Shown here one piece after another: positions 42,003-46,182 of a stretch of 64,000 bases of DNA (within the stretch, counting starts at the first letter, position 1; each line of letters begins with the position of its first letter). This DNA is from an uncultured Bacteroidia bacterium (GTDB lineage: Bacteria > Bacteroidota > Bacteroidia > J057 > JADKCL01). The stretch is from contig CAYGRE010000005.1 of NCBI GenBank assembly GCA_964352215.1, forward strand, positions 18,527 to 82,526, given 5' to 3'. The notes beneath the pieces were generated by a model. It did no database searches. It worked only from the letters and a program-made list of their open reading frames with translations, and had not been told where the DNA came from. The position numbers and the translations under genes were made by a program.

Positions 42003-42486
42003 AATGGTAATGGATTATTGGTCAATGTGTTTTTGAAACAGCGGCAAATTAGTTCGGGTCTGTTGTGGTTGAAAACACAGGTTTGGTATTTTCTTCCTTA
42101 CCGCAAACAGATAACAATTCTCTTTTTTGTCGATCCAGGCCATTAAGGGGCCCTTTCTAGAGCAAAAACTTATTCAGGAGGGTTCCGGCAATTGATCTTT
42201 TTGTAATGAATTCTATTTTTTCCTGGCTATCTGAAGGGAAGAAAACCAGAAACATGTGATTGTGGATTAAGCAAGGCCTGCGTGGAATTTGACGGTCTTT
42301 TGTTTCCGCCAGCATATTGTGGGACTGCACCCTGGAGGAAGATTATCGAAATCATGTGAATGGCCGCATCACCTCGAGCTGCCATATTGCAACCGTTCCA
42401 GCCGCTCAAATTCGAATCGGGCAAAGGAACTACCAGACAACCCTTAATACAATCCTCTTTCATTTAACCCAGTACTTCAAACAATT

Positions 42487-45312
42487 ATGTCAGAACTATT
42501 TAAAATGTCGCTCGTCCGGCCTGCTTATGGTCAATCTATTGTAGAGGCGAGAAAAAAAGCCTTCTTCACTCACTCGAAGGAATACCAGTCGGAGCGTTAC
42601 CTAGGCTGGCTGCGTCAAGCCAAAGCGGAAAACTTTCTTGAATTGGAATCATCGATGAGAAGCTTCCTTGAAAGCGGTGAAGCATTGCGGAGTCTCGATC
42701 AGATTCCTGAAATCTTACGCAAGCCGATTGAGTTTGCGCAAGAACACGGTTACGCATTTTCGGTTGCAGAATTTGCCCGTACCATCATATCGGAACCCAA
42801 GGCAAAGGAATTGGAACCCATTCGGCGAAAGACTCTGCTTCTCTTGCAAGACCAATTGTTGGCTGAAACCCAGGTCGTAGATGCCCAACCCGGTAAAGTG
42901 GATTTGCAAAAAGCAATCCTGACCTTGGAGTTGGTTCGCATGGTCGGAGAATATGGCCCTGAAAAGCTGAAAATGCCCGTGAAAGCCCTTTATGAAAAGC
43001 CGGTTGTTATTGACTTTCCGACAACCCTGCTTGAACACTGCGCTCGATTGCGGAATATAGAACCCTCCAGCACTGGTGACCCGAATAGCAATGGCGAGAC
43101 TAGAGATGATCCGAAGAAGGATTGTTTGTGTCACGAAAAAGAAGGCAAGGATCCATGTGACTGTAAATGTGATGAAAATTGTTATGAGCAAGATCCTTGT
43201 TGCGCTCGGATCATACCGTATGTGGCGGAGCTGTATGTGGTCAAAGACGAACTCAAGTGCTATGTCCCTGCGGAAATTTCCTACATCGAAAATGTAATCC
43301 ATGGAGAAACCCGGGAGAGAACGCACCGGAGACTTTCCAGGGAAGAGACTTATTTTGAGCGGGAAGAAGAAAAAAATACGGTTGAACAAAGGGACCATGA
43401 ATTCGAGGAGCGGTTTGCCTTGAAGCGTGAGGTGGAAACAGTGCTTCAAACGGAGCTTGGAATGCAAACAGGTGCCACATTTACCTATGGCGGCGACACC
43501 GCTCCCATGAAGTTTACCGCACATACAAATTTCAGTTTTGACCTTGACCGCAAGAACACCCGAAAGATGGTTCAGGATGAATCCAAAACCGTAATTTCCA
43601 AAGCCCTTTCCCGAGTCGAAACGAAGGTGCGGACCCTGACCAGCCGACGGGTGATAAATGAAATTGAGGAAACCAATCACCATGTACTTAAAGGATTAAC
43701 CGGTGACATGTCTCGTCAATTCTTGAATGTCAATCAACTCTGCAAGGCACAGGTATTTAGCTATGGTTCGCGGATGATGCTGGACCTGTACCTGCCCGGA
43801 CCTTCCGAGTTGTTCAAGCGGATGCTTGAGAAAGAGTTTGGCGGAGAAAAGCCAGAGAAGCCCTGTATCAACATCGAAGACATTCAGCCAAGGGATTATG
43901 ACAAGTATGTCCAGTGCTATGGATTTACGGACCTCGAACCTCCTGTCATGCCGCTTCCCCCCAAAACAATGACTTTAGAGATCAAGAGGGAAAAGCCCAA
44001 AAAAGGCGGTAGCAACTGGGGTGAAACATACCCAATTACCATTCCGGCAGGTTACTATGTCTCAGAAATGAAACTTGACAATTCGGTGATTAATGCCAGT
44101 GGTATCGTCTTAAATAAAAGTAATCATTATGTCAGTTTTAACTTTGGCGGGCGAACCTTGGTCGATACGATGGACAATACTTCTCCGCCAGATGATTTCG
44201 GTCCAAAGACAGGCATGAATGTTTCTGGGGCGGGTAACGCGACTATTTCTACGAAGTGGCTCAAAAGGTTTGATATTCGGATTCAGCTGAAGCTCACCCC
44301 CCTTCCAGTTGACAATTCCGGATGGCAGCGAGAGGTCTGGCGCCGCATTTATGAAAAATATGAGCTGGAGTTGGCGGCCTATGAAAAGGCATTGAGTGAG
44401 CATGAAGACGACAAGCGGAGAAAGTACAATCAAAATCCGGGGATTCTTTCGGAATTGATGAAGGAACAGCTCAAGCATGCTGCAATCTCCTATATATCAT
44501 GCCAGTTTTTCGATAACAACAATGCGCTGGTCAATCGGGTGGAACCTTGCGGATATCCTCAGATGGACCTGCGTGAGACAAAACGGGAAGGGCAGTTTAT
44601 GCGATTCTTTGAGCAGGCGTTCGAGTGGAATTTCATGAGTTACATGCTCTATCCCTACTATTGGGACCGCAAATACACCTGGGAGGACAAACTCGGGGAA
44701 CAGTCAGAAAACAACCTCTTCACAAAGTTTCTTCAATCGGGCGGGGCACGTATAACCATTCCGGTAAGGCTGCTGTTTGAAGGGTTCGTAAACTTTTTCC
44801 TGCAAACACGGCGGATCTGGGGCCCCACCGGTACGCCCCCATCCTTTAGTGATCCTGCATTCCTTGCCATTGAACAGGAGATCAGGGAAAGCATGAATAA
44901 TTTCAATGCCGACCGCGATGGGGAGGTGATTTGTGACACCAGCTTAGGCCTGGCAGCAAACCAGATCGTTTTGCGGAACAGTTCCGAATACCTTGATTTT
45001 ACCAACCCTGCATTTCCTGTTTACGACCAGGCACTGGCAGACCTGGACCATGACCGGGAGATTTTCGTCAATTGTAAGCGGTACCGGATCATGTCCATTC
45101 ACAAAGACATATCCACTGGCGAAATCATCCTGACGCTCGATCGGGACTTTGATGAGACAAAGGACTTCCCTTGGGATTGGTCTACCGGAGCACTATTTAT
45201 CGGAGCAGCTTGGGAGTTCCTCAAGCCGACCTCTTTGATCTGGTTGAGAGAAGAATCTCGCTGCCTCCCCTGTTATCCCATTGCTTGTACTGAAAATGCT
45301 GTAGTATTATGA
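42487..45312 (+). CDS. large (941-aa) hypothetical protein with an 8-Cys cluster; no signal peptide or TM segment
   Basis: DCLCHEKEGKDPCDCKCDENCYEQDPCC at 43123-43203; ISYIENVIHGETRERTHRRLSREE...; FEQAFEWNFMSYMLYPYYWDRKYTWEDK. ATGA overlap with the next gene. Confidence 0.8.
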   Translation: MSELFKMSLVRPAYGQSIVEARKKAFFTHSKEYQSERYLGWLRQAKAENFLELESSMRSFLESGEALRSLDQIPEILRKPIEFAQEHGYAFSVAEFARTIISEPKAKELEPIRRKTLLLLQDQLLAETQVVDAQPGKVDLQKAILTLELVRMVGEYGPEKLKMPVKALYEKPVVIDFPTTLLEHCARLRNIEPSSTGDPNSNGETRDDPKKDCLCHEKEGKDPCDCKCDENCYEQDPCCARIIPYVAELYVVKDELKCYVPAEISYIENVIHGETRERTHRRLSREETYFEREEEKNTVEQRDHEFEERFALKREVETVLQTELGMQTGATFTYGGDTAPMKFTAHTNFSFDLDRKNTRKMVQDESKTVISKALSRVETKVRTLTSRRVINEIEETNHHVLKGLTGDMSRQFLNVNQLCKAQVFSYGSRMMLDLYLPGPSELFKRMLEKEFGGEKPEKPCINIEDIQPRDYDKYVQCYGFTDLEPPVMPLPPKTMTLEIKREKPKKGGSNWGETYPITIPAGYYVSEMKLDNSVINASGIVLNKSNHYVSFNFGGRTLVDTMDNTSPPDDFGPKTGMNVSGAGNATISTKWLKRFDIRIQLKLTPLPVDNSGWQREVWRRIYEKYELELAAYEKALSEHEDDKRRKYNQNPGILSELMKEQLKHAAISYISCQFFDNNNALVNRVEPCGYPQMDLRETKREGQFMRFFEQAFEWNFMSYMLYPYYWDRKYTWEDKLGEQSENNLFTKFLQSGGARITIPVRLLFEGFVNFFLQTRRIWGPTGTPPSFSDPAFLAIEQEIRESMNNFNADRDGEVICDTSLGLAANQIVLRNSSEYLDFTNPAFPVYDQALADLDHDREIFVNCKRYRIMSIHKDISTGEIILTLDRDFDETKDFPWDWSTGALFIGAAWEFLKPTSLIWLREESRCLPCYPIACTENAVVL

Positions 45313-46106
45313 ACTACTTCAATGAAGCCTACCCATCGCCTCCTTCCGGAGGTGATGGGAAAGGGAAAAAGGGTGCCGGGCCAGTTACAATATTGTCACG
45401 CAGGCCGGGGGTATTGATTTGCTATGGAAATGGTCACGACTTAGGGAACTTTGGCGATTATGCCAAGTCGATTAAGAGCTTGGGAGATACCGCCCAGTAC
45501 AAATTCTCTATCGAAAAAACCCTTACCCGGCATTCCTTTGCTGCTGCAATTCTGAATTGTCCATATCAAATCAAGGAACTTCACCTTTTGAGCCACTCAA
45601 TTGGTGCAGGGTTGTTCCTGGGGTACTATGACAGCGAAATAGGTCAGGCAAGAGACGAATTCATAGAAGATAACCCACTTCCAACCTATGAGCAGATTGT
45701 CAATTTTGAAACGGGTGTTCTACTTACTGACCACTTGGTAAGCTCTAATTTTGATCCTGCTTACCGAGCATTACTCAGGAATAAGCTTTCCGAATGCAAA
45801 TTCCTTAAAATATGGGGCTGCAATTCAGGTGTTGAAAATTGGGTCTATAATGATGGTTATTGGGGGATCTTGAATGGAAAGAATTCTCCCAAACCATCCA
45901 TAGCCCAAGCGCTGGCAAACTACCTTGACATTCGAACTTTGGGTGCTAAAAGTGGTAGTAGTCCGGAGTATTTGATCAATGGGAAATGGGTTTCAGGCAA
46001 AGATTATTCCACCCAAACCGGCAAATCGTATCCATATCCAAACGAATACAAAGAGATCAGGTTGCATCCCGATACTGGCGATTACCATCCATTTGATCCG
46101 ATCTAA
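45309..46106 (+). CDS. 265-aa hypothetical protein with His/Cys motif pair (DUF4347- / clan-CD-peptidase-like)
   Basis: ELHLLSHSIGAGLFLG (His96, 45594-45596) ... KFLKIWGCNSG (Cys171, 45819-45821) ... PSIAQALANYLDIRTLGAKSGSS. Translationally coupled to 42487..45312. Confidence 0.75.
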   Translation: MNYFNEAYPSPPSGGDGKGKKGAGPVTILSRRPGVLICYGNGHDLGNFGDYAKSIKSLGDTAQYKFSIEKTLTRHSFAAAILNCPYQIKELHLLSHSIGAGLFLGYYDSEIGQARDEFIEDNPLPTYEQIVNFETGVLLTDHLVSSNFDPAYRALLRNKLSECKFLKIWGCNSGVENWVYNDGYWGILNGKNSPKPSIAQALANYLDIRTLGAKSGSSPEYLINGKWVSGKDYSTQTGKSYPYPNEYKEIRLHPDTGDYHPFDPI

Positions 46107-46138
46107 ACAAGACCATTTTTAACGTTTAGAACCTATGT

Positions 46139-46182
46139 GGATCCGTTCGACTATCTGAAGTCGGGCGGGTCCGTTGTTTTTT
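46139..46182 (+). terminator. intrinsic terminator of the 42487-46106 operon
   Basis: GGAUCCGUUCGAC (46139-46151) pairs over 13 bp (three G-U) with GUCGGGCGGGUCC (46160-46172). 8-nt loop, then GUUGUUUUUU. Confidence 0.8.

Follow-up and report, generated by a model that had tools for sequence, protein, structure and literature searches.

A constant large protein with an interchangeable, N-terminally tagged partner looks like an undescribed effector system in an uncultured Bacteroidia bacterium

The window analysed here, a stretch of 64,000 nucleotides from contig CAYGRE010000005.1 of an uncultured Bacteroidia bacterium, contains a two-gene operon within a low-GC island at 33-46 kb (44.4% GC vs 53.3% upstream). 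Both open reading frames described in the sequence-only reading, overlapping by ATGA, are present at this locus, and as many homologues were found for both, they are more than chance ORFs. The operon is laid out as follows:

42003..42486, no strand assigned: upstream intergenic region, presumed operon promoter region, holding no ORF with homologues
42487..45312, + strand: P0001 gene (941 aa), the constant 'carrier'
45309..45312, + strand: ATGA start/stop overlap of P0001 and P0002, indicative of translational coupling
45309..46106, + strand: P0002 gene (265 aa), the variable slot, encoding an N-terminal tag and a clan-CD cysteine-protease-like toxin domain
46139..46182, + strand: intrinsic terminator, end of the two-gene operon

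The terminator was borne out as a 14-bp stem (46139-46172) followed by a U-tract (-28.7 kcal/mol, z = -2.1). The 484-bp upstream region, described earlier as AT-rich, is there, but at 42.1% GC it is hardly more AT-rich than the island itself. A scan of it for sigma-70-like promoters, which does not extend to those of the Bacteroidota type, gave 5 matches where chance alone predicts 4.6. The neighbourhood of a lower-GC island with toxin-antitoxin (TA) and Fic genes also held, with a Fic protein gene located at 32913-34460 and an antitoxin/ParE pair at 46792-47321; such genes are also the usual surroundings of defence genes. No + strand ORF lies between 46106 and the terminator, so that the operon lacks the usual immunity gene behind the toxin, and immunity-type queries in this genome returned generic ankyrin matches or nothing.

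The AF2 model of P0001 (pLDDT 76.8), together with the conserved motifs, divides the protein into these parts:

42487..43056, + strand: N-terminal, mainly helical domain, aa 1-190 (AF2, pLDDT mostly 80-93)
43120..43203, + strand: 8-Cys cluster in a disordered linker, aa 212-239 (pLDDT <50 over aa 192-222)
43219..43797, + strand: two very long beta-hairpins (aa 245-287 and 388-437) around the charged block and two helices (AF2)
43948..44310, + strand: beta-sandwich (jelly-roll-like) domain, aa 488-608
44608..44691, + strand: aromatic-rich family signature FEQAFEW..M.Y..YPY.W, aa 708-735

The Cys cluster, the charged block (aa 264-315) and the aromatic block had all been quoted correctly in the earlier reading. 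In the N-terminal domain R11 and D122 are nearly invariant across the family, while the Cys cluster is confined to the Bacteroidota-type clade and is conserved in the A1 consensus, not in A3. The charged block carries a conserved IENV..GE..R.HR motif. Hairpin strands are predicted at E245-271, E275-287, E388-400 and E407-437, and N269, G273, E274, R278, H280, E287, E392, E395, N397 and H399 are near-invariant in this region. W714, W726 and W732 are invariant in the aromatic signature; F707, E709 and Y722 show no variation in A1 and little or none in A3. The most conserved motifs of P0001 coincide with low-confidence parts of the model, which may reflect an oligomeric or alternative state. As had been stated, P0001 has no signal peptide or transmembrane segment: the maximal Kyte-Doolittle 19-mer value is 1.2 (0.8 in P0002), so that neither protein contains a TM- or signal-like hydrophobic stretch. 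Some relatives of P0001 bear an additional C-terminal discoidin or SH3 module, and at least one carrier relative ends in an F5/8 type C (discoidin) domain.

P0001 has 57 close homologues, and a search with the aromatic signature (aa 708-735) as seed pattern yielded >531 genome loci. The family comprises 4,892 representative clusters at 50% identity, and its conservation extends along the whole protein. Members come from many bacterial phyla, monoderms and diderms alike, and from two archaea. Its distribution is patchy: 9 of 41 related genomes contain a match to P0001, at 25-32% identity (best match mostly 27-30%). Family members were located on 13 plasmids, and the family tree shows cross-phylum nestings.

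In line with the earlier failure to name a family for either protein, searches of Pfam, NCBIfam, PADLOC and PHROGs gave no named-family match. For P0001, PADLOC-DB v2 returned merely a weak, non-convincing match to AbiEii (E 0.0025, 93 aa), and for P0002 none. No PDB sequence match and no whole-protein fold match were found for P0001, and BFVD contributed generic beta-sandwich matches only. Structure searches produced no PA-like fold, and an HK97 fold was absent from the Foldseek, VIA and Atlas rows, a comparison that effectively covers aa 488-608; no recognisable fold points to a pore, shell or fibre. By Pfam, neither P0001 nor nine diverse relatives contain any domain, trafficking domains of the known routes (Rhs, FHA, LXG/WXG, PAAR, VgrG, MuF) included, and no NTPase, nuclease or nucleotide-sensor domain was detectable in P0001. 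Nothing marked P0001 as a phage structural protein: tblastn gave no match in 50,697 phage records, and no PHROG match was significant.

For the small protein the following elements are relevant:

45309..45386, + strand: disordered N-terminal tag of P0002, aa 1-26 (MNYFNEAYPSPP...), pLDDT <50
45594..45596, + strand: His96 codon, putative catalytic His, nearly invariant in 45 sequences, after strand 88-94
45819..45821, + strand: Cys171 codon, putative catalytic Cys of an invariant WGCN motif, invariant in 45 sequences, after strand 165-168

The body of P0002 is modelled as a clan-CD (caspase-like) alpha/beta/alpha sandwich with DUF4347 proteins among its structural neighbours, so a fold shared with His/Cys hydrolases is present. 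His precedes Cys and each is placed at the end of a beta-strand, as in clan CD; the spacing is 75 residues with a helical insert within. No Pfam or NCBIfam match was obtained at E <= 1 (Peptidase_C14, C13, C25, C80, CHAT, DUF4347 PF14252), a PDB profile search gave chance matches only, and DUF4347 clusters resemble P0002 at fold level only (TM 0.45-0.50). Of the suggested likeness to clan-CD peptidases and DUF4347, the clan-CD fold and the conserved His/Cys pair stood, but the DUF4347 HMM did not match. Judged from model and residue conservation, P0002 looks like a clan-CD (caspase-like) cysteine protease with a putative His96/Cys171 dyad. P0002-type domains also occur on RHS and PAAR proteins. 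Where relatives lack a P0001-like gene, they stand alone (L088-L090, L093) or behind other upstream genes (L091, L092), and overlapping ankyrin-repeat or small genes come after them, an arrangement like that of a toxin and its immunity gene.

A same-strand ORF next to the carrier stop was found in 76 of 80 loci, slot genes being defined as same-strand ORFs of >=150 aa starting -60 to +200 bp from that stop. Overlaps or gaps of <=60 bp separate carrier and slot gene in 52 of the 60 loci analysed, and clustering of the 60 slot proteins gave 38 groups with no relation to one another. P0001 and a protease are thus not kept as a pair; what recurs from locus to locus is the large gene, followed by a slot of changing content. 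Apart from the slot gene, no neighbour is conserved across the 80 loci, linked secretion genes included. Carrier and slot protein are encoded by two genes at every locus, and a search for fusions of the two (forms longer than 1,648 aa) came up empty, a weak negative. What fills the slot is toxin-like. PT-TG pre-toxin domains were detected in seven, one of which also has a CdiA_C toxin domain, and patatin (5), LodA-like oxidase (4), M23 (4) and PAD (2) domains recur; further examples are PLD, amidase_3 and GH3 as well as the wall-binding modules LysM, SPOR and OmpA. A Sec-type signal was present in none of 76 slot proteins, though several act on peptidoglycan, and in one of 80 carriers; this implies non-Sec export. 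In a haloarchaeon the carrier is paired with a patatin esterase, which is unlikely to attack the cell's own ether lipids. PT-TG domains, as described so far, mark exported polymorphic toxins (PMC13483458).

Immunity and secretion genes were scarce around these loci. Of the 67 other loci, 24 have any third gene, and the remaining 43 lack a canonical immunity gene behind the toxin, which is unusual among interbacterial polymorphic toxins. One related locus adjoins T6SSiii genes. In the present genome, which is 98% complete, TssF (PF05947) was not found, and several sheath-like genes lie on other contigs.

Within the clade of the window's carrier (six carriers, 100/100 support), at least five unrelated toxin bodies are encoded, and the sole part common to these slot proteins is a short, disordered, Tyr/Pro-rich tag. 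Its motif M-x-[YF]-[LF]-x-[EY]-[AV]-[YF]-P was found at the N-terminus of five of the six; L006 deviates with MSYNNYPKTEW. Tyr accounts for 9.6% vs 3.6% (p about 1e-7), and Gly, Pro and Asn are significantly enriched. The tag is missing in stand-alone relatives of the P0002 toxin, and L024, L025 and L027 each have tagged genes in tandem behind a single carrier. In distant clades with LodA or patatin cargos no obvious N-terminal tag was seen, so docking by such a tag cannot be universal. Toxin cassettes have been exchanged between carrier loci. The closest carrier to P0001, that of L001 (50% identity), is followed by an unrelated toxin, whereas L087 and the window share toxins that are 57% identical behind carriers of different major clades (32% identity). 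Since the L087 tag resembles that of the window, though its carrier belongs to another clade, no strict co-evolution of carrier and tag is established.

We give about an even chance to the view that the locus is a split polymorphic-toxin module, in which the carrier stays constant while the tagged toxin can be exchanged. This view draws on the conserved adjacency with a variable, toxin-like slot, the shared tag, the cassette exchange and the near-absence of Sec signals, and also on the immunity-like genes behind other P0002 relatives, the surface-binding F5/8 type C domains, the haloarchaeal patatin pair and the patchy, mobile distribution of the family. These features, like the clan-CD fold with its conserved His/Cys pair, are observed, whereas binding of the two proteins, export, the target and the action of the carrier belong to the proposal. 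The ATGA overlap would couple translation, so that carrier and toxin are made together, and the disordered, Tyr/Pro-rich tag of about 26 residues would dock the toxin on P0001. As carrier, P0001 would keep the toxin harmless inside the producer and would help it to be released, to bind a target and/or to enter the cell of a competitor or a eukaryote. The role is proposed for a protein with no Sec signal, with long beta-hairpins and a beta-sandwich, and with discoidin or SH3 modules in some relatives.

The concept of polymorphic toxin systems (Rhs, CdiA, LXG/WXG, PAAR/VgrG-fused toxins) reportedly goes back to Zhang, Aravind and colleagues in 2012. Like these, the present loci combine a constant part with a hypervariable toxin 'warhead', swap cassettes between loci and include PT-TG and CdiA_C domains; the clan-CD warhead is also carried by RHS/PAAR proteins, and its family has ankyrin immunity partners. 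Unlike them, the module is split over two polypeptides, with no link between constant and variable part beyond a short N-terminal tag, P0001 has no Rhs/YD, FHA, LXG, PAAR or VgrG domain or known fold, no secretion system is linked and an immunity gene is mostly absent. A constant large protein with interchangeable enzymes is also found in encapsulin cargo loading and in binary AB toxins (anthrax PA with LF/EF; Vip1/Vip2), where a short disordered targeting peptide, or a docking region shared at the N-terminus, identifies the enzymes. The gene for a large constant protein beside interchangeable, N-terminally marked enzyme genes is similar here, but structure searches with P0001, effectively covering aa 488-608, gave no HK97- or PA-like fold match, and neither component has a signal peptide. 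The cargos are toxins rather than metabolic enzymes, and any assembly of P0001 into a shell or pore would be hypothetical. With clan-CD peptidases and DUF4347/CHAT proteins P0002 shares the fold and the order of His and Cys, each after a beta-strand; it differs in having no Pfam match (E <= 1) and in its 75-residue spacing with helical insert. In Pseudomonas aeruginosa, the T6SS cargo effectors Tce1 and Tce2, loaded inside Hcp3 rings, have a His/Cys dyad, an extended N-terminal region before the protease domain and no adjacent immunity gene, all with counterparts in P0002, where the dyad is putative, and Tce2 is toxic to yeast (PMC13323088). Unlike here, their carrier is a T6SS Hcp ring of ~170 aa instead of a 941-aa upstream-gene protein of unmatched fold; they have no detectable sequence similarity with P0002, and the present genome yielded no TssF.

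The main alternative, though rather unlikely, is an intracellular conflict or defence module, in which P0001 as sensor or scaffold would hold a variable suicide effector (here a caspase-like protease) inactive until it is freed on phage infection or stress, similar to abortive infection. A constant large protein with interchangeable effectors is typical of defence systems (CBASS, Avs, retrons, Lamassu), and with these the family shares variable effectors (patatin, PLD, proteases, nuclease-type toxins), a patchy and mobile distribution and the setting in a low-GC island near a Fic gene and an antitoxin/ParE pair; most loci are also without an immunity gene. However, the effector types resemble exported toxins, PADLOC gave no convincing match for either protein, no NTPase, nuclease or nucleotide-sensor domain was detectable in P0001, and one carrier has a surface-binding discoidin domain. 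Many slot proteins are wall-acting or wall-binding (M23, amidase_3, GH3, LysM, SPOR, OmpA), and without a signal peptide the substrate of the wall-acting ones is out of reach from the cytoplasm. P0002-type domains with ankyrin immunity partners, or on RHS/PAAR toxins, likewise speak against defence, as do the PT-TG domains, which as far as described mark exported toxins (PMC13483458).

The scarcity of dedicated immunity genes and the tight translational coupling would also suit P0001 as a 'universal immunity' protein, a chaperone or inhibitor that sequesters any toxin encoded behind it, with export of the toxin by an unlinked route such as a contractile injection system or lysis; the sheath-like genes on other contigs and the single locus next to T6SSiii genes agree with this. 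We regard it as quite improbable. One family would hardly neutralise 38 unrelated enzyme folds except via a common tag, in which case this explanation merges with the carrier model; the 80 loci have neither linked secretion genes nor another conserved neighbour, TssF was not found, and monoderms, diderms and archaea have no such machine in common. Least probable by far is the proposal of the sequence-only reading that P0002 is a processing protease and P0001 its substrate. The protease-like fold, the conserved His/Cys pair and the coupled genes would fit, but in other loci the large protein hardly ever has a protease beside it, its partners representing at least 38 families without common origin (phospholipases, oxidases, peptidoglycan hydrolases, a CdiA_C nuclease-type toxin), and the protease domain occurs without a P0001-like gene nearby, paired with ankyrin genes. 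Thus, the two families are not interdependent.

Beyond the split-module reading, we tentatively consider it possible that the P0001 family is the core of an unrecognised toxin packaging or delivery device, independent of envelope type. If true, this would be a self-assembling carrier in the form of a particle, a fibre or a translocator, it would take up tagged enzymes with no need of a known secretion system, and it would serve across bacterial phyla and archaea against competitors or grazers.

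The two genes studied here lie in an island of low GC content (33-46 kb, 44% GC versus 53% upstream) whose main features are as follows.

32913-34460, minus strand: gene for a Fic-domain protein of 515 aa, flanking the low-GC island
36933-42002: four genes syntenic in L001, the locus of the closest carrier relative, encoding proteins of 197 aa (minus strand), 719 aa (minus strand), 496 aa (plus strand) and 217 aa (minus strand)
42487-45312: gene for the large 'carrier' protein P0001, 941 aa
45309-46106: gene for P0002, 265 aa
46139-46182: terminator
46792-47321, plus strand: Unstab_antitox/ParE toxin-antitoxin pair, flanking the low-GC island

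Both reading frames, the ATGA overlap joining them, the island and its Fic and antitoxin/ParE neighbours were found as described by the sequence-only reading, and the blocks it had quoted from P0001 were located at aa 212-239 (8-Cys cluster), aa 264-315 (charged) and aa 708-735 (aromatic). In agreement with that reading, no signal- or TM-like stretch was detected in P0001, nor in P0002. The terminator, consisting of a hairpin and a U-tract, does end the gene pair, although its stem measures 14 bp instead of 13 bp, and the 484 bp upstream of the operon are AT-rich (42% GC), but hardly beyond the island background. Neither protein could be assigned to a named family, as had been stated before for the blocks of P0001; searches of Pfam, NCBIfam, PADLOC and PHROGs gave no significant match for either. 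The sequencing runs listed are DNA and all originate from one biofilm-metagenome study.

An extension of the operon to the four upstream genes was considered and dismissed: their synteny is confined to L001 and they do not accompany the carrier family elsewhere. Among them, the 719-aa protein has a weak Reprolysin-like M12 match and the 217-aa protein is lipoprotein-like. A 470-aa ORF on the minus strand (39940-41352) was rejected as a shadow, wholly antisense to the 496-aa gene at 39841-41331, because the latter is real by homology (53% to L001). GC-rich imperfect palindromic units around CCCTCCAGAGGG occur at 46290-46700, after the operon terminator and before the antitoxin/ParE pair, at spacings of 44, 88 and 132 nt; they look like REP-type elements, and a TRF scan of the sequence downstream of the operon gave no clean tandem array. 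Farther on, a 590-aa ORF without Pfam match (48241-50013, plus strand) lies in a stretch of strong GC skew (0.14-0.23), with a long antisense ORF at 48310-49887.

A word-indexed search retrieved 57 full-length relatives of P0001, every one annotated 'hypothetical'. More than 531 loci were found in a scan of species-representative genomes, and an exhaustive profile search gave 4,892 clusters at 50% identity (3,117 at E <= 1e-30), nearly all with proteins of 950-1,100 aa matching end to end. The family is spread over many bacterial phyla, plasmids and some archaea, including Streptomyces, Micromonospora, Xanthomonas, Vibrio, Sorangium, Neobacillus, cyanobacteria, Chloroflexota and Methanoperedens as well as 13 plasmids, e.g. 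a B. thuringiensis plasmid and a haloarchaeal megaplasmid. When genomes related to that of the window were analyzed, 9 of 41 had a match at 25-32% identity (best match 27-30% in most), and some had several copies. A phage origin of the carrier was rejected, as tblastn against 50,697 phage records found the family in no phage genome. Conserved positions in the alignment run from R11 to P928; among them are invariant Trp, Pro and Gly residues as well as two motifs, IENV..GE..R.HR and FEQAFEW...YPYFW. Pfam gave zero matches on nine diverse carriers, a PDB sequence-profile search with the carrier gave no hits, and the nearest ESM Atlas clusters by features are unnamed, mostly actinobacterial hypothetical proteins. 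C-terminal additions in P0198, P0228 and P0176, three other carriers, comprise an F5/8 type C discoidin domain (one carrier, E 1e-6, above the Pfam cut-off) and weak matches to SH3_3 and Big_7. A weak search for longer proteins fusing carrier and toxin found none.

The AF2 model of P0001 (pLDDT 76.8) contains the following parts.

Helical N-domain
Disordered Cys linker
Two hairpins, with strands of up to ~30 residues, around a charged, poorly modelled segment
Beta-sandwich, aa 488-608
Long helical hairpin
Alpha/beta domain
C-terminal beta domain

Fold searches (Foldseek against PDB, VIA-align against 48,161 chains, ESM Atlas by shape, and BFVD) returned as their sole match the generic beta-sandwich at aa 488-608, at background Z, and effectively covered that region alone. 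The hairpin and charged region is the most conserved and is poorly modelled, a possible sign that the protein oligomerizes or switches state. An HK97-type fold, a pore and a fibre were among the readings considered for the carrier.

The gene directly following the carrier gene, here called the slot, is positionally constant and variable in content. In 76 of 80 loci, the start of an ORF of 150 aa or more on the same strand falls between -60 and +200 bp from the carrier stop, and the two genes overlap or are separated by at most 60 bp in 52 of the 60 loci analysed. Among the 60 slot proteins there are 38 unrelated clusters, and de novo clustering of neighbour genes revealed no other conserved neighbour of the carrier. 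The partner of P0001 is a slot and no single family. Pfam analysis of 63 slot proteins identified PT-TG in seven (once together with CdiA_C), patatin in five, LodA_N/C in four, M23 in four, PAD in two and DUF2515 in two; GH3, amidase_3, PLD and PhoD were found once each, along with LysM, SPOR and OmpA modules. Two of the LodA genes (L061, L064) are followed by a flavoprotein-like (LodB-type) gene. A Sec-type signal is absent from every one of 76 slot proteins, and a dedicated immunity gene is mostly absent after the slot genes. P0002 itself is unlike the genes found after P0001 homologues, except for its first dozen or so residues. The comparative data contradict the earlier proposal of P0002 as a processing protease with P0001 as its substrate.

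For P0002 we found 87 relatives of ~250 aa without Pfam matches. Among 45 of these, Cys171 (WGCN) is invariant and His96 near-invariant, the two forming the putative dyad. AF2 models P0002 confidently (pLDDT 87.2); its residues 1-26 are disordered. Chance hits only were obtained with the P0002 profile against PDB sequences; in the ESM Atlas, the fold occurs at the end of RHS and PAAR proteins and also in DUF4347 and CHAT clusters. On its predicted fold, P0002 is a putative clan-CD toxin domain. Downstream of relatives that stand alone or behind other genes lie overlapping genes, which are ankyrin-repeat genes in L088 and L091-L093 and small genes in L089 and L090; this gene order is a toxin-immunity layout. 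When the ankyrin, 422-aa and 167-aa genes following P0002-type toxins elsewhere were used as queries, nothing specific was found in the window's genome. As a putative Cys protease with no immunity gene in its operon, P0002 resembles the T6SS effectors Tce1 and Tce2, which are putative Cys proteases and likewise lack immunity genes; Tce2 is toxic to yeast (PMC13323088). At L091 (1268-4592) and L092 (734-3287), P0002-type toxins followed by ankyrin genes have a different N-terminal tag (FKNPW...W). Upstream of them are genes for proteins of 594 and 307 aa, of which the former, the sole one compared, is unrelated to P0001; another family of carriers, having a tag of its own, may be represented here.

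Within the window's carrier clade, five of six slot proteins start with M-x-[YF]-[LF]-x-[EY]-[AV]-[YF]-P, L006 deviating (MSYNNYPKTEW), and those of neighbouring carrier clades have Tyr/Gly/Pro-rich starts of the NP..GGY type. Compared with other ORFs of the same loci, the tag N-termini contain 9.6% versus 3.6% Tyr and 47.5% versus 25.5% G/P/N/S/Q (p = 1e-7 to 1e-10, with related sequences non-independent and the motif defined post hoc). The tag extension is absent from stand-alone P0002 relatives, and in distant clades the LodA and patatin cargos are without such a tag. The six carriers that make up the window's clade in the carrier tree (100/100 support) are associated with at least five unrelated toxin bodies. 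Conversely, the window's toxin body is 57% identical to that of L087, also encoded after a P0001 homologue with a 4-bp overlap, and the two carriers are 32% identical and belong to different major clades. Since carriers of different clades have this toxin body in common, toxins move between carriers. The L087 tag is similar to that of the window, and tag and toxin body may travel together. In L024, L025 and L027, the first cargo gene is succeeded by another whose product has an N-terminal tag rich in Tyr, Gly and Pro; these loci are tandem arrays of tagged cargos with one carrier each. Complex prediction for the carrier with the first 55 residues of P0002 (score 0.00) gave no verdict and is evidence neither way.

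Altogether, the comparative sequence data fit a split polymorphic-toxin module, in which a constant carrier would be combined with an interchangeable, sometimes tagged, toxin. Several features argue for toxin action outside the producer: wall-acting or wall-binding cargos without Sec signals, PT-TG and CdiA_C domains on slot proteins, the P0002-type warhead on RHS/PAAR toxins and with ankyrin immunity partners, the terminal discoidin domain of one carrier, and the patatin cargo in a haloarchaeon. The alternative that the locus is an intracellular defence module is still alive on account of the mostly missing immunity gene and the island context.

As to secretion systems, T6SSiii genes (TssO, TssF, gp25-like) are found at a distance of 1-6 kb from the carrier-toxin pair of an uncultured Lacinutrix (L003 = L009, 11788-17534), which also has a CHAT protein encoded nearby. 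Seven sheath-like (PF04984) matches, three of them over the cut-off, lie on other contigs of the window's genome (C49, C48, C15, C46, C144 and C113), and TssF had no match there; the genome may therefore encode several contractile injection systems or prophages, none of them linked to the operon.

On the toxin side the module has a new representative of already-known kinds; what is new are the constant partner and the arrangement, which is split and apparently independent of a secretion system. Neither partner nor arrangement was described in the profile libraries or papers searched (topics PT-TG, LodA with patatin, encapsulin with polymorphic toxin, archaea with patatin). That the module is a categorically new delivery device seems to us rather doubtful. 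In any case, a family of thousands of sequence clusters has been missed by all annotation libraries tried, with a swappable arsenal of lipases, wall hydrolases, oxidases, proteases and one CdiA_C nuclease-type toxin. As a carrier, the large protein would provide a new arming and delivery route for toxins common to monoderms, diderms and archaea, and give a function to many 'orphan' toxins without trafficking domain, e.g. the singletons with PT-TG reported in PMC13483458. Should it act as a defence sensor instead, the family would constitute a new, very widespread immune system. Under either reading, tag and carrier may serve as a modular pair in protein delivery, and the gene after the carrier is a simple genomic handle to find new toxin domains.
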